This document shows, one piece after another, positions 1,106-52,975 of a stretch of 53,865 nucleotides of DNA. The stretch comes from a virus (taxonomy: Duplodnaviria; Caudoviricetes), in IMG/VR virus record IMGVR_UViG_3300033513_000009, positions 1-53,865 of that record; one strand, given 5' to 3'. The notes under the pieces were generated by a model. That model did no database searches. It was given only the letters and a program-made list of their open reading frames with translations, and was not told the origin of the DNA. A program made the translations under genes and the position numbers. Position 1 is the stretch's first letter. Each line of letters begins with the position of its first letter.

Positions 1106-1578
1106 AAAGATTTTCCACCGTCTGTACTGAATTTGATATTTTTAACTCCCAAATTTTCCAATACTTTTCTTTGACGATTCTTTAATTCATTTCTATCGCT
1201 TAATTCTGATGGTATGATACTTACCGCCCTTAAGCCATCAGAGGTTGCCCTAATAGAGAGATGCTGATATTTTCCCTTAAATTCGGAACTATTAGCTGTG
1301 AAATTAACCTCGTTTTCCCCATGTGTGCTGGATATTCCGCTTTTCCCTACATATACCGCATTGTGACCCATTAAACTAACAATAGTTGCTTTGTCAATAG
1401 GCTTCCCAATAATAGTACCTAATTTTTCTAGTGATTTTGAATCAATATTCTTGGTATTAACCACCTCACTTGCAATCACCGCTTCTTTCTTGGGATTTTT
1501 GCCACTACCAGCAGGATACCTGCCTGAACCTTCGCCGCCCTTTGCTAGTTCCAAATTATCTATTATTTTGTTTATCAT
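1093..1578 (-). CDS. Leader-bearing hypothetical (putative capsid cargo)
   Basis: MINKIIDNLELAK-GGEGSGRYPAGSG; overlaps neighbouring genes. Confidence 0.75.
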   Translation of the reverse strand: MINKIIDNLELAKGGEGSGRYPAGSGKNPKKEAVIASEVVNTKNIDSKSLEKLGTIIGKPIDKATIVSLMGHNAVYVGKSGISSTHGENEVNFTANSSEFKGKYQHLSIRATSDGLRAVSIIPSELSDRNELKNRQRKVLENLGVKNIKFSTDGGKSFWNY

Positions 1579-2318
1579 CTTGCTATCCCATAAAGTTCTT
1601 CTATCTTATCACTATCAACCCCATTTGCTTCGTAAAGCTGTTCAATCTCATCCCAGTTCTCATCCACATCATCCTGTAGTTCCGAATCGAATCTACACAT
1701 CCTAATTAATGTATCTATTTCTAGTTGCCCTGAAGCTATCTCATCTAACAAATCATCACCCGTATCAAATTTAGCAAGCATCCCAATTAATTTATTATTA
1801 GTTTCCTTGCGAGTATTATCATCCAAATTTTTGTTCTGCCATTTCAAAGCCTCAATTAGGTCTTTTTTGTCATTGGCATAGTTCTTTATTTTATCAAAAT
1901 TTCTATAAGTATCCCATTGTGTTAATAGGTCTTTTTTATCATTCCAGTCTTTTATATTTTTTAGTTTTGACTGAATATTATTGATTTCCTTGTTTACAAA
2001 TTCGGTAACATGTTTAATAGGGGCATTAGTGAATGCTAATTGCCCCATTTTTTTTGACCCATAGTTAGAAGCAAATGCTTGTTCTATTAATGAAGGTAAA
2101 CCACTTTGGTGAGCCATAACCCATTGATTACCATGGAAGGAATGACCCACTAAATCACCCTTATGAAGGAAGAAGATAATATCATCCAACTTCCTCATTT
2201 TGCGCGCTGAAGACAGGGCGATAGCGATAGCTTGCCTATGCGGATATTTTCCACTCCTCATAAGCTCTCTGATATTTTCAGAGATAACTTCCTTGCTACT
2301 ACCCTGTATCAACGGCAC
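1575..2318 (-). CDS. Putative head-associated protein with internal leader
   Basis: Phage-type N-terminus MPL..GSSKEVISENIRELM..QAIAIALS, then KLDDIIFFLHK-GDLVGHSFHGNQW. Confidence 0.7.
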   Translation of the reverse strand: MPLIQGSSKEVISENIRELMRSGKYPHRQAIAIALSSARKMRKLDDIIFFLHKGDLVGHSFHGNQWVMAHQSGLPSLIEQAFASNYGSKKMGQLAFTNAPIKHVTEFVNKEINNIQSKLKNIKDWNDKKDLLTQWDTYRNFDKIKNYANDKKDLIEALKWQNKNLDDNTRKETNNKLIGMLAKFDTGDDLLDEIASGQLEIDTLIRMCRFDSELQDDVDENWDEIEQLYEANGVDSDKIEELYGIAR

Positions 2319-3069: not shown

Positions 3070-3774
3070 TTAGTCTTGAATAGATAAAATATGTTGTTGT
3101 GAAAATGATTTCTTGCAAAAATCGTAGGGGTAGATTACATGACATCCGTCGTATTCGCCTTTCTCATTTGGAAGATAGAATTTTGTGGCATTCCCAAAAC
3201 TATCATTCATTACGAATCCAACATCATTATAACCTATGACCCCATTAACATGTACAATAGTATCGCTTGTTCCGTTCGGACGTTTTCTGAAATAAAATCC
3301 AGCAGTAATGACAGGTATGTTCTTATCTATGCTTGCTTTGATTTGTTCAAAATTCACACCCTGAGTAAATGTGTCTTTAAGACCCAATTTTTCAAGATAC
3401 CATTTTAGCACAAAGGGATTATTCCTTGGTTTAATACAATCCTGCTGTAGTTTTTCATTTGTATTAAATGGAGCTAAGTACAGTGTCCACTTTTTCAAGT
3501 CATCATCCGATAGGGATTTGATTCTATTTGCCACTATACTATCAGGCATAGTTATGAAATGAGTATTCCACGCCTCTCGTGTAGCCAATTGCTGTGACAC
3601 ATAATCATCTAGCTGACCCACTCCATCCCATCCACAAAATTTATGAATATCTAATTTGAAATATTCACAAATCCATTGAATCACCATGGCTATTGTAGTC
3701 GCTTGACAAGTACCGAAAGGAGCGTCTTCGTTGTTCCTTTGATTATGCCATACTGCATTTAATGCTTTTTCCAT
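3070..3774 (-). CDS. C39-like cysteine peptidase, candidate endolysin
   Basis: TCQATTIAM (Cys), HVNGVIGY (His), NDSFG (Asp); next to holin-like genes. Confidence 0.7.
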   Translation of the reverse strand: MEKALNAVWHNQRNNEDAPFGTCQATTIAMVIQWICEYFKLDIHKFCGWDGVGQLDDYVSQQLATREAWNTHFITMPDSIVANRIKSLSDDDLKKWTLYLAPFNTNEKLQQDCIKPRNNPFVLKWYLEKLGLKDTFTQGVNFEQIKASIDKNIPVITAGFYFRKRPNGTSDTIVHVNGVIGYNDVGFVMNDSFGNATKFYLPNEKGEYDGCHVIYPYDFCKKSFSQQHILSIQD

Positions 3775-4247
3775 TATGCCTTATTAAATACTACTTTCTT
3801 CCCTTGAATTAAATCATCTAAATGAGACCTTATCTGATAATGGGGGTCATGGTAAACATCTTCAAGTTTTTCTTTATCTTTTTTCTCATCATAGCTCGTG
3901 CGGGTAAATCCCGGAGCTTCCGTTAGTCCTGCTCCCTCGTTGCCTAAATCAGTAGAGTACCTTAAATCACTGTTTGAACTATGTTGCTCCATAATATCTG
4001 CCATAATCTCATCATGGGATTTGCCCGATTCCATTGCTTCCTTAGCTTCTTGGATTCCTTCTGGGCTGAGTTGTAATTCAACTCTATTGCCGTATTCGTG
4101 AACAGAGGCATTGTTACTATTCCAGCTTTGAACTGGTTTGTCACCCCTTGCTTCTTTCTTTGGATTTTTGCCACTACCGGCGGGATAGCGACCCGAACCT
4201 ACTCCACCCTTTGCTAGTTCCAAATCAGCTATTATCTTGTTTATCAT
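3774..4247 (-). CDS. Leader-bearing hypothetical (putative capsid cargo)
   Basis: MINKIIADLELAK-GGVGSGRYPAGSGKNPKKEA, nearly identical to the first 33 aa of 1093-1578, with an unrelated C-terminus. Confidence 0.75.
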   Translation of the reverse strand: MINKIIADLELAKGGVGSGRYPAGSGKNPKKEARGDKPVQSWNSNNASVHEYGNRVELQLSPEGIQEAKEAMESGKSHDEIMADIMEQHSSNSDLRYSTDLGNEGAGLTEAPGFTRTSYDEKKDKEKLEDVYHDPHYQIRSHLDDLIQGKKVVFNKA

Positions 4248-30664: not shown

Positions 30665-30919
30665 CTATCCTCCTATTTTTCTTATACATGCTTCAATCAA
30701 TAAATATACCTTGCGATAGGCTTCGGCTTCAATTTGCGCATTCTCTATCTGTTTCCCAAGGAATTCTGTAGGAACCGCACTATATTTATTCATTAAATTT
30801 TCTTCTCTTTTTTCGACACTATCCAGCATTCGATTAATTTCTTTCAGGAGGTACATTAGTGCCCCTAAATCTTCTTTGTTACTATAATCAAACTCAAGAA
30901 AGTCTTGCAATATTTTCAT
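30665..30919 (-). CDS. Hypothetical protein
   Basis: Helical 84-aa ORF between TerL and portal. Confidence 0.55.
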   Translation of the reverse strand: MKILQDFLEFDYSNKEDLGALMYLLKEINRMLDSVEKREENLMNKYSAVPTEFLGKQIENAQIEAEAYRKVYLLIEACIRKIGG

Positions 30920-30940
30920 ATTATATCCTATAAATTAAAC

Positions 30941-33900
30941 TTAAATCTTAGCCTCTTCATTATTTTCCCTTTCTGCCTCTTTTTGGGTATTATAGAAGGT
31001 TGACCACATGCGAACACTGCCTAGATTAAAGAAATTTAAGGCTTGTGATAGGGAATCACAGTTGGAAACTAGTATATTATTGGCGAAATACACATGCTCT
31101 TTATCTACTGTTAGATTGTACACGTTTTCTCCAGTTTGCCCAATTGAACTTAGCGGTACAAGATTTGCTACAGGTTCGTTTTGTTTGCTTGGGATTTTCC
31201 TTCCGTATGGTTTTGAAGGTTGTCCCGCAATATTCACATTGTAATTCGATGTCATACATTCCCGTAGATTCCCTGTGCTTTCTCCCACATTGTGGTCGGC
31301 AATATTTGGGATTGTAATAGGAAGCCAAGAATTCTTTTTTACACCACAGGCATTCATGTTTCGATTGTTCTCGTTTTCCAAAGGAATGATTTTTGGCATG
31401 TTGGCGATGCCATTCCTTTCCTGCTTCTGATTTATGCCATTCCTTTGCGTCTTCCCTAATTTTTGCCAAATGCTCAATTTGTTTTTCTTTATCCTTAACA
31501 GGATGTTGCCTACGGTGTTCCCTAACTGATATACATTCCAGATTAGAGAAGTCGTTATTAAACCAATCCCCATCCTTATGGTGAATGTGATAGCCTTTTG
31601 GAACTGCTTGCCCTGCATAAAATTCCCAAATTGCAACATGAAGTCCTTTAGCACATCTTCTTCCTGCATTGGTTTTTGACTGGCTAAGATAATATCTTCC
31701 CGCCCCCATGAGGGTATATTTTGTTCCATTGAATATAATATTTTTCTGTATTTCCATCTCAAAAGCTCTCCCCAATTTAATTGTTTTGTTTCTTCAATTG
31801 TTACCTTTCCTAAATCCCTAAAACCATCCTTCGTGAAAACTGGATGATTTGGGGTTCCTGTTAATCCAATATTCGAAACTACATTATGTTTTCCCGTATA
31901 ACCACAAGTTAATACTCTACAAATTCCCGAAGGAGTGATAACCCAATCGTTTTTTGTGATTTCCTCGATAGGTTTGTTTCCGAACAATGTAGCTATTTGG
32001 GTTCCAGCCACGAAACAAATATCATCATTCTTATGTGTTCCCGCTGGCGAAAAGGCTAAGTGTTCCTCAATAATATCCACTGTCCACGCCTTGTCAGAAG
32101 GTACGTAGACCTGAGAGCCCCTGTAATAGCCGATTACTGTACTCACCCTATAGAGTTTATCAGGAGCTCCCTTAAATCCCCCTCCCTCTGCCTGAATATT
32201 GGTTGCCATTGGAATAGAAAGACCCGATTCTCGTAATTCCTGAATAAGCTGATGTCCACTTGACCTATCCTCTATAATAATATTAGTAGGCTGGTATTTA
32301 GCATTAAGGAGCAAGAGATTTTGTTTTAATTCATGGTATTGAACCTTCTCTCTGAACATATCCACGACATAATAATGACCCTTTGCTGTTAATCCCATTA
32401 CGAGGAGCACGCTATAATCATTATGCTGACCCGTTTTTACCGCCGTGTCGCATGAGATTATCAAGTCATCAAAGGCAGGGGTCTCGGAACTATCATAAAA
32501 CTGAAAATCATCCCTGTTAAATACCGCTCCATCAAGAGGGTTGGGAACCTGCATATACTGAGCGGCAAATCCAAAAGCCATATTTCTTTTAATGCGTTCA
32601 ACCTCTTCGGCAGGAAACCTTTCACCCCAGAATAAATCACCATCTTTTGCATATCCCTCAATCACTACCCCTTCTGGTAATTTGACTATACGTTCATCGT
32701 AAGTTATAGGAAGGACAATACCGTCATATTGGTCTTTTATTTGAGCTATGATGTCATCTTCATGGAGCCTCTGCATTATCAACCAACGACTTCCAATAGT
32801 TTGCGAGTTAAGACGAGAATAAAGAGTTACATTAAACCATTCATTAGCTGAATTTAGTTTCGTTATACTACTAGCATCTTGAGGTTTGAGGTAGTCGTCG
32901 ATTATTATGCAATTGTGGACGAGTATTTCATTTGCAAAGAAGTTGTGATTTCCTTCCACTTGGATGTCATAGACCCTGACCCCTCTATCGCGTATTGGGA
33001 CAACCATTTGTACGGTGTCTCCATCGAATGATGATGAATTGTATGACATATTAAGCAAATTGCCACCAAGTTCTCCGCCACATTGTTCTTCGGATTTTCG
33101 TCTATATGGTGAATTATCATATTGGAATGTCTCATCTTTCCATACCTGTTCCTTTTTATCGAAAAGGTTTGAGGTTTGTGACAAACTACACAGGCTTCCT
33201 TCTCCCTTTCCAATATCAAGGGGCGCATCTCGTAAAACCATTTGGAGTAACTTCTTCCCTCCTTGTAATGAGAATTCCCAGTTCCAATCATTCTCTTTGA
33301 ATGAGCCTTGTTTTTGCATATCATCGAGCAATACATACTTCTTGTACTCTTCCCCATAAATTCTTTTTGACAAAAGTGACAATTGATTTGCTTCAATTTT
33401 TTCCTGCTCTTGGGCGATTTCAGACGACATTCTATCGAACAAAATCTCATCGTCTTTTTGGGTACCATACTCGAACATATCTCGCATTTTCGACGATTTT
33501 TGAAAGAATGATGTTTTTCCGAGCATGTTGCGGAGCAATAAAAATCCTTTCGTCCCTTCTTTATTGATTTTTCCACATTGAACTTGCTTCTCCTGAATTC
33601 CTTGTGACACAGGGAGCATTCCAGTACGAATACAATCTTCCTCGCTTTTTGATAACATGTCCAACATATTGTTCTGCCTTCCGATTTTTTCCCCTGACAT
33701 ATTGGGCACCCCTCCGTTGCTGATAATAAGCTTATCTCCGTTCCCAAGAAGTTGTGCTTGTGTATATCCAAATCCTGTTGTGTATATACGATGTTTTCCC
33801 GTAGCCCTGATATAACGCCCTTTATTTGTGGTGATTTCATGAATATCATTGCTAACTGAAACCTTCGTTGCAACAATATTTCTCCATTCTGTTTGTTCTG

Positions 33901-34501
33901 TCTCATGATTATATGATAATACTCTTGGCATTTCCTTTAAATTTACTATCTCCTCAATAGTCATATTTCCCCATTCAGTAGCAATCATTGTCTCCCCCAC
34001 CAGACAATCAGCACCTGAGCCGGTTATTGCCGCAGCAGTCGAGGTAGCGATACGTTCTCCACCCTGATTGTTGAAGAACTTAACCTTTTCGTTCTGAGCG
34101 CCGTGTAGTTGGTAAATCTCCCCAAACCATCTCTGGTATTTCTCACTCTGGATAATAACCCTAGATTTGACCGAAAGCTCGTTTGCTAGTGTATCGGTGT
34201 GAGAGGCTACAATGAATTTCAAATATGGATAATGTACCCACGCCCATCCAACCGACATGATTGAAAATATATAAGATTTCATACAACGGGGAGGGATATT
34301 CACATAATGGTCGCGGGTTTTTGGTAGTCTCTGCCCAACCCTGAGAATATCTTTTTGAAATTCATCGCATAGGACTTTGATATGCCAGTTATCCGAAAGA
34401 GGTGTACCCGGTTCCAGTACTTCCCAAAATTCCTTTATAAAATGATAATAACTGCGACGAGCTCTTTCACGTCGTACCAACTCATTAGGCGGTATAAACA
34501 T
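30941..34501 (-). CDS. terL: Terminase large subunit with two inteins (about 502 aa after splicing)
   Basis: NIPPRCMKS Walker A; spliced GAD-CIIIDD Walker B; MQRLHEDD; SCDTA, IEDRSSG and DDI-CDS nuclease motifs. Confidence 0.95.
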   Translation of the reverse strand: MFIPPNELVRRERARRSYYHFIKEFWEVLEPGTPLSDNWHIKVLCDEFQKDILRVGQRLPKTRDHYVNIPPRCMKSYIFSIMSVGWAWVHYPYLKFIVASHTDTLANELSVKSRVIIQSEKYQRWFGEIYQLHGAQNEKVKFFNNQGGERIATSTAAAITGSGADCLVGETMIATEWGNMTIEEIVNLKEMPRVLSYNHETEQTEWRNIVATKVSVSNDIHEITTNKGRYIRATGKHRIYTTGFGYTQAQLLGNGDKLIISNGGVPNMSGEKIGRQNNMLDMLSKSEEDCIRTGMLPVSQGIQEKQVQCGKINKEGTKGFLLLRNMLGKTSFFQKSSKMRDMFEYGTQKDDEILFDRMSSEIAQEQEKIEANQLSLLSKRIYGEEYKKYVLLDDMQKQGSFKENDWNWEFSLQGGKKLLQMVLRDAPLDIGKGEGSLCSLSQTSNLFDKKEQVWKDETFQYDNSPYRRKSEEQCGGELGGNLLNMSYNSSSFDGDTVQMVVPIRDRGVRVYDIQVEGNHNFFANEILVHNCIIIDDYLKPQDASSITKLNSANEWFNVTLYSRLNSQTIGSRWLIMQRLHEDDIIAQIKDQYDGIVLPITYDERIVKLPEGVVIEGYAKDGDLFWGERFPAEEVERIKRNMAFGFAAQYMQVPNPLDGAVFNRDDFQFYDSSETPAFDDLIISCDTAVKTGQHNDYSVLLVMGLTAKGHYYVVDMFREKVQYHELKQNLLLLNAKYQPTNIIIEDRSSGHQLIQELRESGLSIPMATNIQAEGGGFKGAPDKLYRVSTVIGYYRGSQVYVPSDKAWTVDIIEEHLAFSPAGTHKNDDICFVAGTQIATLFGNKPIEEITKNDWVITPSGICRVLTCGYTGKHNVVSNIGLTGTPNHPVFTKDGFRDLGKVTIEETKQLNWGELLRWKYRKILYSMEQNIPSWGREDIILASQKPMQEEDVLKDFMLQFGNFMQGKQFQKAITFTIRMGIGLITTSLIWNVYQLGNTVGNILLRIKKNKLSIWQKLGKTQRNGINQKQERNGIANMPKIIPLENENNRNMNACGVKKNSWLPITIPNIADHNVGESTGNLRECMTSNYNVNIAGQPSKPYGRKIPSKQNEPVANLVPLSSIGQTGENVYNLTVDKEHVYFANNILVSNCDSLSQALNFFNLGSVRMWSTFYNTQKEAERENNEEAKI
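31061..32017 (-). mobile_element. Intein 2 in the TerL nuclease domain (319 aa)
   Basis: Starts CFVAGTQIAT, block B TPNHPVF, ends YNLTV..HVYFANNILVSN|C. Confidence 0.9.
31101..31757 (-). CDS. HNH homing endonuclease in an alternate frame inside intein 2
   Basis: LHVAIWE..HIHHKDGDWFNNDFSNLECI..H plus CxxC fingers; GGGGAGAG RBS 8 nt before ATG 31757. Confidence 0.85.
   Translation of the reverse strand: MEIQKNIIFNGTKYTLMGAGRYYLSQSKTNAGRRCAKGLHVAIWEFYAGQAVPKGYHIHHKDGDWFNNDFSNLECISVREHRRQHPVKDKEKQIEHLAKIREDAKEWHKSEAGKEWHRQHAKNHSFGKREQSKHECLWCKKEFLASYYNPKYCRPQCGRKHRESTGMYDIELQCEYCGTTFKTIRKENPKQTKRTCSKSCTAKFNWANWRKRVQSNSR
32905..33906 (-). CDS. Zinc-finger HNH homing endonuclease in an alternate frame inside intein 1 (start uncertain)
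   Basis: Multiple CxxC/YCSxxC repeats then CVVC..IHHIDENPKNNVAENLVAICLICH. Confidence 0.85.
   Translation of the reverse strand: MRQNKQNGEILLQRRFQLAMIFMKSPQIKGVISGLRENIVYTQQDLDIHKHNFLGTEISLLSATEGCPICQGKKSEGRTICWTCYQKARKIVFVLECSLCHKEFRRSKFNVEKSIKKGRKDFYCSATCSEKHHSFKNRRKCEICSSMVPKKTMRFCSIECRLKSPKSRKKLKQINCHFCQKEFMGKSTRSMYCSMICKNKAHSKRMIGTGNSHYKEGRSYSKWFYEMRPLILEREKEACVVCHKPQTFSIKRNRYGKMRHSNMIIHHIDENPKNNVAENLVAICLICHTIHHHSMETPYKWLSQYAIEGSGSMTSKWKEITTSLQMKYSSTIA
32912..34006 (-). mobile_element. Intein 1 at the TerL Walker B (365 aa)
   Basis: Starts CLVGETMIAT, block B ATGKHRIYT, ends VYDIQVEGNHNFFANEILVHN|C. Confidence 0.93.
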
Positions 34502-34670
34502 AGTATCTCCCCTTAGACCCGCATGTATCGGTTGGTTTTATACCTAGATTCAATATCGCCACCTTATCCTCTCTTTCTTCGGTACATTTATGTATTTCAC
34601 CTTTTATCCTTATGCAATACTCTATCTCTCCGATTTTGTCACAATGTTTGCAATTATTACACTGTTGCAT
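34485..34670 (-). CDS. Small Cys-rich protein
   Basis: CNNCKHC..C..C..CG; overlaps the TerL start. Confidence 0.55.
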   Translation of the reverse strand: MQQCNNCKHCDKIGEIEYCIRIKGEIHKCTEEREDKVAILNLGIKPTDTCGSKGRYYVYTA

Positions 34671-34920
34671 ATTTCCTCTTCATAGAAGCTTTATATGCTG
34701 GACGACAGTGCCTATGAACAACCGTTTTTTCGTCAGTAATATCAACATCAAGGGCATCTCCACAATGCTTGCACAATTTTGCCACTTCTTCGGAATCCCA
34801 TTTAGCCCATAATTTACGAGAACAATCATCACAACGACTATTAGCCATGGCAAGAATATCAACCCATTCACCACAACTGCATTGACCTAGCACCGTTTTC
34901 CTCACTATGCGGTAATTCAC
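34657..34920 (-). CDS. Small zinc-ribbon protein
   Basis: CSCG, CDDC, CKHC, HRHC. Confidence 0.55.
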   Translation of the reverse strand: MNYRIVRKTVLGQCSCGEWVDILAMANSRCDDCSRKLWAKWDSEEVAKLCKHCGDALDVDITDEKTVVHRHCRPAYKASMKRKYATV

Positions 34921-52606: not shown

Positions 52607-52975
52607 ATGAGAAAAGCTGATTTTTTTAAGAATATCGAAAAACAGGATGATTGTCTGATATGGACGGGTGCTACAGCCAATATAGGTAATAAGGAATATC
52701 CTATTTATAAGGGAATATATGCCCACAGGCTAATGTTCCAGCTCTATAGGGGTATAATCAAGGGAACTATTCGTCGTTTATGTGGAGATAGCCTTTGTGT
52801 TAATCCAAAACATTTGGCATATACGGGTGAAGCCCCTTGTACTATGTGCGGAGAGAATGAAAGAGCCATTAATAGGAAAACTGGTAAATTATATGGTGAA
52901 TGCCTTGTGTGTAGGAGAAAACGTGATGCCAAGTATTATAAGAAAAAACGTGCCACCAAAATCAAGGCAAGGTAA
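52607..52975 (+). CDS. HNH-like (zinc-binding loop) endonuclease, possibly degenerate
   Basis: CLIWTGA, AHRL, LCGDSLCVNPKHL, CTMC, CLVC. Confidence 0.7.
   Translation: MRKADFFKNIEKQDDCLIWTGATANIGNKEYPIYKGIYAHRLMFQLYRGIIKGTIRRLCGDSLCVNPKHLAYTGEAPCTMCGENERAINRKTGKLYGECLVCRRKRDAKYYKKKRATKIKAR

Follow-up and report, generated by a model that had tools for sequence, protein, structure and literature searches.

The large terminase (TerL) gene of the viral contig IMGVR_UViG_3300033513_000009 carries two inteins, and beneath each of them lies an open reading frame (ORF) for an HNH endonuclease that is out of frame with TerL. The contig, hereafter the window, is a linear stretch of 53,865 nucleotides (53.9 kb) with a GC content of 39% and an estimated completeness of 46%. 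The main subject of this study is intein 1 together with the reading frame nested in it, HNH1. We consider it highly probable that intein 1 is a contiguous class 1 intein in which an HNH homing-endonuclease gene, offset by +1, occupies the place of the endonuclease domain. The layout is real and under selection, but its kind has already been described in other phages.

The product of the TerL ORF matches PHROG terminase families down to 2.2e-74 as well as Pfam Terminase_6C, and its frame runs without an internal stop through both intein 1 (residues 166-530) and intein 2 (residues 829-1147). The +1 frame of the gene contains 67 stops, none of which falls within codons 189-531, the flanking stops being at codons 188 and 532. 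The +2 frame contains 87, none within codons 903-1132. Both stop-free gaps match HNH families, and therefore an initial annotation, made from the letters of the sequence, was correct in its observation that an endonuclease is hidden out of frame. Since HNH1 lies in the +1 frame and its counterpart HNH2 in the +2 frame, the TerL gene uses all three forward frames. Coordinates of all features are collected in Table 1.

The initial annotation described intein 1 as a 365-residue intein with intact splicing blocks, and the translation bears this out: Cys1 (in CLVGET), a TxxH block (TGKH) and a terminal HN followed by a +1 cysteine (LVHN/CIIIDD, the slash marking the junction). These residues, together with a match to Pfam Intein_splicing (PF14890) of 73.5 bits against a cut-off of 35.8 (62.8 bits in a second run), are those of a class 1 intein. 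The C-terminal block VYDIQVEGNHNFFAN..LVHN is conserved in all relatives, and the insertion site is shared with Gordonia phage Clown, Brucella phage Tb and the loci L004 and L005. From the intact blocks and the essential nature of TerL we infer that intein 1 undergoes protein splicing. In an AlphaFold2 (AF2) model of the in-frame intein, the beta-rich HINT halves reached a pLDDT score (predicted local distance difference test) of about 90, whereas residues 98-328, the in-frame centre, stayed below 30. The centre matched no Pfam family, in keeping with the earlier description of a centre devoid of endonuclease motifs, and it is predicted to be an unstructured tether joining the two HINT halves. 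Residues 61-333 of HNH1 (273 aa), encoded by the same stretch in the other frame, were modelled with a mean pLDDT of 80.7. Alignment depth was unequal in this comparison (10 sequences for HNH1 vs 3 for intein 1), a caveat softened by the fact that the HINT halves fold confidently even with the shallower alignment.

Read from stop to stop, the +1 frame holds 343 open codons, and the 333 that follow ATG 33906 encode zinc-ribbon repeats and an HNH core, as had been annotated. HNH1 matches PHROG 1271 at 3.6e-18. Against Pfam HNH_3, whose cut-off is 24.8 bits, the full ORF scores 24.6 bits and the trimmed one 25.0. Within the HNH1 family PF01844 matches 7 of 10 members, and HNH_3 likewise matches 7 of 10. 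Ten columns of the 10-sequence family alignment (A1) are invariant (C179, C182, H206, H207, N215, N219, C224, C227, H228 and H232), and the window's HNH1 retains all invariant catalytic and zinc residues. It combines the profile match, the catalytic His and Asn and the CxxC...CxxC zinc site of an HNH endonuclease, the HNH_3 score being borderline. The zinc-ribbon repeats, presumed to be the DNA-binding part, gave a single weak match, to a MYM-type zinc finger (E 0.016), in a profile search against PDB sequences.

Stops are absent from the intein frame to a degree that the HNH1 protein does not account for. In a first null model the HNH protein was held fixed and its synonymous codons were redrawn from the codon usage of the window in 20,000 draws. 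For the 273-codon core of HNH1 this gave a mean of 26.9 intein-frame stops (minimum 12) against 0 observed, and 0/20,000 draws were stop-free; the other off-frame, used as a control, held 18 stops vs 16.8 expected. A second and stricter null, in which each locus's own synonymous codons were permuted, still predicted 16.0 intein-frame stops for the window where there are none. Under the same null all 28 contiguous relatives had 0 intein-frame stops vs means of 1.3-16.7, and the other off-frame held 4-17 stops per locus. The expectation is only 1.3-3.5 stops in high-GC hosts, so the layout is cheap there and costly at 39% GC. Intein 1 and HNH1 are thus two long same-strand ORFs sharing one DNA beyond chance, and the idea put forward in the initial annotation, an overprinted endonuclease whose shadow frame is kept free of stops, is supported.

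Close relatives of the window phage were not found: an HNH protein search returned at most 48% identity, searches of viral contigs with whole-TerL patterns returned none, and blastn of the window against phages gave short pieces only. Codon-position identity and the closest pairs within the family were therefore used in place of a formal ratio of non-synonymous to synonymous substitution rates (dN/dS). Five HNH1 loci were compared across the centre, namely the window, Gordonia phage Clown, Brucella phage Tb and two viral contigs. Nucleotide identity was 0.52, 0.57 and 0.36 at HNH1 codon positions 1, 2 and 3, and amino-acid identity was 0.39 in the HNH frame vs 0.21 in the intein frame. As a control, both splicing halves and both exteins were least conserved at the third position of the TerL frame. 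The closest pair, two Streptomyces contigs (L072 and L074), differed at 19, 11 and 64 sites in HNH positions 1, 2 and 3; these amount to 52 synonymous and 25 non-synonymous codon changes in the HNH frame, and to 4 synonymous and 75 non-synonymous changes in the intein frame. The direction was the same in all 10 pairs examined. Conservation follows the HNH frame and not the intein frame, and the HNH frame is intact, with the intein frame stop-free, in 28/28 contiguous relatives, both as the initial annotation had expected of an overprinted endonuclease. The HNH frame is under purifying selection at the protein level, and across the centre the intein frame is selected solely against stop codons.

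A tblastn search with HNH1 against named phages matched 45 records, among them 41 of brucellaphages and 2 of Gordonia phage Clown, and the matches fall beneath TerL. The offset was +1 in all five of the first HNH1 loci. A profile-guided survey yielded 124 loci with an HNH1-like match, of which 83 were dropped (match shorter than 150 residues) and 41 kept. An open ORF spans the HNH at +1 in 25 of these 41, and tblastn found both intein halves in 23 of the 25 and the C-terminal half alone in 2. Three further loci are split-intein forms whose halves stand in the same register with many stops between them, and 13 are weaker HNH1-like matches without an intein. Hosts in the survey records include Streptomyces, Sulfobacillus, Chloracidobacterium and Polaromonas. 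All seven database homologues close to HNH1 in length appear to be nested too; six terminate in the +1 shadow of the intein C-terminal block, and in the seventh (P0004) the tail has diverged.

In the split forms (L031:2233-3400, L034:2221-3400 and L035:408-1580; 31-36% GC) the TerL frame stops just after the N-terminal splicing half and restarts with Met about 35 residues before HN/C. The HNH between the halves is the same one and keeps the +1 register; it has an ATG of its own, which stands 5-11 codons ahead of the first CxxC and has AAGG or GAGG upstream. To judge from these signals, some relatives at least express the HNH as a gene in its own right, and the split forms link the contiguous and split states. 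A fractured arrangement of this kind was seen in these three loci; the intein frame of the window is continuous.

The distribution of both elements is that of homing endonucleases, with sporadic presence at one conserved site of a host gene. Intein 1 with HNH1 occupies one site in the window, L005, Clown, Tb and L004 and is absent from the related TerL of phage phiCDHM19, while intein 2 with HNH2 shows the converse pattern, being absent from Clown and Tb and present in phiCDHM19. L005, like the window, carries both elements. L004 (4157-4662) shows a separate feature, possibly a further insertion downstream of intein 1: the TerL frame breaks off at 4157 and appears to continue, unshifted, from about 4662. 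Additionally, 85 nt at 32894-32978 (TerL nt 1524-1608, minus strand) share 83.5% DNA identity with positions 3436-3520 of Clown, despite the GC contrast between the window contig (39%) and this actinophage (65%). The 85-nt stretch covers the junction with the extein and is where the intein 1 C-terminal block, the HNH1 tail and the homing site overlap.

We propose that a gene of the free-standing HNH type, with N-terminal zinc ribbons and a C-terminal HNH, has taken the place of the endonuclease domain of intein 1. It probably arrived when a free-standing HNH gene invaded the intein, and the split-intein relatives would represent an alternative outcome. Ribosomes on TerL would read through the centre, after which intein 1 would splice out and leave an active terminase. 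HNH1 would be made separately from the same mRNA by internal initiation, likeliest at ATG 33906 within the N-terminal splicing half, and would cut TerL alleles that lack the intein, into which intein and HNH would then be copied as a unit. Translation at a low level would suit a nuclease.

The initiation of HNH1 calls for closer consideration. As first annotated, no clear ribosome binding site (RBS) or ATG lies near the first finger; TTG 33747 and TTG 33771 are the sole canonical starts fewer than 30 codons away, and both lack a Shine-Dalgarno (SD) sequence. An upstream ATG or a frameshift had accordingly been named as possible needs, and of the two the upstream ATG gains some support from the leaders of low-GC relatives, while the frameshift is unlikely. 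In four low-GC contiguous loci, including the window, the +1 frame is open for 76-95 codons upstream of the first finger, over most of the N-terminal half, and this exceeds what synonymous resampling of the intein codons produces (P=0.025, 0.0018, 0.0072 and 0.0044). All +1 stops in these loci lie within the first 80 nt of the intein, and the first ATG comes 1-13 codons after the last of them, at +100 nt in the window (ATG 33906) and at +91, +61 and +85 in the other three. Of 26 contiguous loci, 10 have an ATG between +85 and +100, which arises from the conserved S-Y-[ND]-H-[ED] codons. The context of ATG 33906 is 72% A+U and nearly unstructured, with a minimum free energy of -2.1 kcal/mol over 60 nt. 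We infer that ATG 33906 is the most likely start of HNH1, used without an SD sequence and at a low level. A promoter scan gave 17 sigma-70-like sites vs 11.2 +/- 3.1 in shuffles, and one sigma-70-like site at 33941-33913 ends 6 nt before ATG 33906; neither result was relied on.

Several points weigh against a nested and expressed homing endonuclease. In the window at least 23 of 55 crude ORF starts, that of TerL included, follow a GGAG/GAGG motif, yet no SD sequence precedes ATG 33906 or the starts near the first finger, and the GGAGG at 33711-33715 precedes an ATG of the intein frame, not of the HNH frame. Start positions vary across contiguous relatives, and two of these (L027 and L077) have no ATG, GTG or TTG within 30 codons of the first CxxC. 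The argument for the upstream ATG is post hoc, and the four low-GC loci share ancestry. Taken alone, the Pfam support for HNH1 sits at the threshold. A Foldseek search of the HNH1 model against PDB gave no match at E<0.01, its weak rows being HNH domains (probability up to 0.98, E>=0.013) and multi-zinc-finger entries. HNH relatives above 48% identity were not found, so the signs of constraint come from the wider family and could miss a recent decay in this lineage. Translation of HNH1, DNA cutting and homing are all argued from sequence. Among sequencing runs, one DNA run, possibly from the source sample, contains the stretch, and no RNA run with it was found.

The lack of a convincing start signal and RBS in the window would also fit a programmed +1 frameshift in the N-terminal intein half, which would yield an N-extein/N-intein/HNH fusion with no internal start. 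Were this so, HNH1 would have no start site of its own and the dose of endonuclease would be set by frameshift efficiency. L027 and L077, with no canonical start close to the first finger, fit this explanation too, and a shift site would likewise need the open leader of the low-GC loci. In the window alone, GGAGGGG followed by CCC-A stands just before the first finger, a sequence that may resemble known +1 shift sites. However, a shift at CCC-A would drop the first Cys of the conserved CxxC, and the junction is poorly conserved in length and sequence, with no conserved motif visible by eye (no formal motif search was made). In Tb the +1-frame stop leaves 7 codons for a shift, where the AAGGAG-GTG start sits, in the split-intein relatives this HNH is expressed from an ATG of its own, and the HNH2 family is clearly start-bounded. 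On balance we regard a frameshift as improbable. A further reading, also outside the one we favour, would have the nested HNH double as a terminase-associated HNH packaging cofactor, as speculated in a passage of the brucellaphage paper (PMC4422536).

Slightly less probable still is that HNH1 in the window phage is a silent relic, inherited with the intein and decaying toward a mini-intein. The missing RBS would suit a relic, as would the lack of close relatives in which recent constraint could be read, and a part of the preprint on actinophage inteins discussed below (10.1101/2025.01.02.630785) notes that such ORFs should decay after homing stops. Against this, 333 codons are intact at 39% GC, where the +1 frame otherwise stops about every 13 codons, and the upstream +1 leader has been kept open. 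Purifying selection acts across the HNH1 family and, as far as the presence of all invariant HNH and zinc residues can tell, HNH1 is not visibly decaying.

Phage introns often contain HNH genes. The note on Tb gp08 in GenBank reads 'intron-encoded', and the centre might on this ground be taken for a group I or group II intron that carries an HNH ORF and is removed from the mRNA. An intron needs no stop-free host frame, yet 28/28 loci have 0 stops against expectations of up to 16.7, and the place between the HINT halves is precisely that of an intein endonuclease domain. An Rfam scan of the window at the gathering score, and one of 30800-34700 with E allowed up to 1, gave no match, and the brucellaphage paper (PMC4422536), in the part dealing with this point, also reports no intron signatures. 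With no Rfam match and a stop-free host frame we rejected the intron, to which we give next to no chance. Equally implausible, and likewise rejected, is that two compensating sequencing or assembly frameshifts pushed a normal in-frame HNH intein out of register. The window is, it is true, a viral contig assembled from a metagenome, but 25 other loci share the layout and its +1 offset, as do the genomes of isolates, namely Clown, Tb and 40 more brucellaphage records. Errors cannot produce stop avoidance in the read-through frame, and no in-frame fused relative of HNH1 was found among proteins of 479-2000 aa, although this last is weak evidence.

Canonical inteins reportedly carry an in-frame HNH domain between their splicing blocks, an arrangement said to have been described by Dalgaard and colleagues in 1997. 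The nuclease is then part of the intein polypeptide, whereas in the window it has a separate reading frame. The initial annotation suspected that similar cases might already be reported, and they have been, in the brucellaphages in 2015 and in actinophages in a 2025 preprint. According to the section of the 2015 paper concerned (PMC4422536), all brucellaphages have, within TerL and out of its frame, an HNH encoded by the intein, and the GenBank record of Tb annotates TerL with 'intein present' and an overlapping ORF8 as 'putative HNH endonuclease'. The element of Tb, Pr and their relatives is closely comparable to that of the window, with a homologous HNH (32.9% identity over 69% of the HNH1 query), the same site (..AD/C..HN/C.IIDD) and the same +1 offset. 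It differs in that the Tb HNH lacks the first zinc knuckles and is tightly bounded by an upstream stop and an AAGGAG-n3-GTG start, and in that Tb TerL has no second intein.

Gosselin, Arsenault and Gogarten (bioRxiv 10.1101/2025.01.02.630785) describe, in the portions of their preprint that were available, actinophage inteins with out-of-frame or antisense endonucleases, many of them in TerL. As in the window, the endonuclease frame differs from that of the exteins and splicing domains; the in-frame centres were unstructured in predictions, and the origin was attributed to a free-standing endonuclease gene invading the intein. An endonuclease-VII-like enzyme is described there in 'frame 3', which fits the +2 HNH2 type (e.g. 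phage TJE1) and not the +1 HNH1. The phages of the preprint are actinophages, whereas the window record is not an actinophage and carries both types in one gene. Clown is listed, in the same portions, only as the longest class 1 intein at 385 aa, a length that our intein boundaries for Clown match. The architecture is called rare there; our survey counts suggest that in TerL it is common rather than rare.

A hidden out-of-frame HNH has also been reported in the DNA methylase of mycobacteriophage ShiLan, with a stop-free host frame (PMC11855218); in the sections concerned the RBS was undetectable and translation was discussed as SD-independent or leaderless. ShiLan resembles HNH1 in having an HNH without an RBS out of frame in a stop-free host gene. 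It has no splicing domains, and therefore the insert stays in the host protein, whereas the window has a complete HINT domain to remove it. Dassa et al. (2009; PMC2677866) described fractured genes, in which a free-standing endonuclease gene lies between the halves of a split intein, and predicted that HNH genes might do the fracturing and that inteins might gain endonucleases in this way. L031, L034 and L035 match this layout exactly, with a gene of the HNH1 family. The cases set out in the available parts of that paper differ in having GIY-YIG or Vsr-like enzymes, not HNH. Unlike them, the window has a continuous intein frame, and therefore TerL would be made as one chain and spliced in cis. 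A class of mycobacteriophage TerL inteins was placed in the Walker B motif in the relevant section of Kelley et al. (2016). We met no paper in which a single gene bears two out-of-frame nucleases, one in each alternative frame, nor one on HNH split-intein relatives, although no dedicated search was made for either. What may be new here is the use of both alternative frames in one TerL, the series formed by contiguous, split and free-standing relatives, the stop-free +1 leader over the splicing half, and the abundance of the layout in viral contigs.

The layout shows how a selfish nuclease gene can travel within a self-splicing protein element and yet stay separate from that protein. The shared DNA has two readers, and one of them requires nothing more than freedom from stops. 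Comparison of the contiguous, split and free-standing forms offers a testable series for the gain of endonucleases by inteins and for the origin of split inteins. There is also a consequence for annotation, as gene callers will usually report TerL alone and miss the nuclease, or will create spurious 'unknown' families, of which phrog_35162 is probably one.

Intein 2 and HNH2 form a second pair in the same TerL, unrelated to intein 1 and HNH1. Intein 2 carries C1, TPNH and LVSN/C, the penultimate residue being Ser and not His, and homologous inteins occupy its site in phiCDHM19, Highwayman, TJE1 and LS06. HNH2 matches Pfam HNH_3 at 49.4 bits and PHROG 15471 at 1.1e-25. Under the first null model, 0 intein-frame stops were observed vs 5.4 expected (P=0.0012), and the other off-frame of HNH2 held 22 stops vs 25.9 expected. 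Across six loci (the window, L005, C. difficile phage phiCDHM19, Acinetobacter phage Highwayman, Tetrasphaera phage TJE1 and a Rhodobacteraceae phage), identity at the three HNH2 codon positions was 0.51/0.55/0.385 and amino-acid identity 0.37 in the HNH frame vs 0.22 in the intein frame, with an offset of +2 in all six.

Stops lie just upstream of the HNH2 start, ATG 31757, and of 58 unique nested relatives 53 have an ATG close to residue 1 and 56 a stop no more than 30 codons upstream. With its conserved ATG, SD-like motif and nearby upstream stops, HNH2 looks like a normal gene. In one viral collection 553 stretches matched HNH2. Among the best 80, which include 18 duplicates by match sequence, 76 are nested at +2 and 4 are not, and intein matches accompany 75 of the 76. 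A free-standing HNH2 relative lies between terL and the portal gene in Pseudomonas phage PAE1.

Two observations concern the annotation of this second pair. The family phrog_35162 ('unknown function') matches the in-frame shadow of intein 2 at 31000-31700 (TerL residues 945-1151; 4.7e-20), and it was probably built from read-through or shadow translations rather than from a real protein. In Clostridium phage phiCD119 (L014, 201-2595) TerL is recorded as three coding sequences (ter1, ter2 and ORF3), with an HNH2 homologue beneath a 'hypothetical protein'. The split is probably an annotation or sequence-frame problem in an intein-bearing TerL like that of phiCDHM19.

Table 1. Features of the TerL gene and of the two intein-HNH pairs within it (window coordinates)
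Feature	Position	Strand	Basis or remark
TerL (large terminase) ORF, 1186 aa	30941..34501	minus	ORF list; read through both inteins
Intein 1, class 1, 365 aa	32912..34006	minus	Insertion at GAD/CIIIDD, just before Walker-B-like IIIDD
N-terminal splicing half, intein 1 residues 1-97	33716..34006	minus	AF2 pLDDT ~90; conservation follows TerL frame
In-frame centre, intein 1 residues 98-328	33023..33715	minus	Stop-free HNH shadow; pLDDT <30, no fold predicted
C-terminal splicing half, intein 1 residues 329-365	32912..33022	minus	pLDDT ~89; ends HN then +1 Cys
HNH1 ORF, +1 frame, 333 codons from ATG 33906	32905..33906	minus	Stop within first extein codons
Zinc-ribbon repeats (CxxC...CxxxC) of HNH1	33316..33708	minus	Cys pairs (nearly) invariant in alignment A1
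HNH catalytic core of HNH1 (CxxC, HH, N, N, CxxCH, H)	33031..33192	minus	HNH_3 match 33061-33144
Intein 2, 319 aa (CFVAGT...ILVSN/C)	31061..32017	minus	Pfam Hint_2 N-terminal match
HNH2 ORF, +2 frame, 218 codons from conserved ATG 31757	31101..31757	minus	Open frame 31101..31775
GGGGAG, SD-like, 10 nt upstream of HNH2 ATG	31768..31773	minus	Sequence view

Elsewhere in the window, two short ORFs rich in Cys, of 61 and 87 aa and containing several CxxC pairs, are found directly upstream of TerL at 34485-34920 on the minus strand. A third HNH-like ORF is free-standing and encodes 122 aa at 52607-52975 on the plus strand, with a sub-threshold HNH_3 match at 52718-52819 (18.8 bits, E 8.4e-5).

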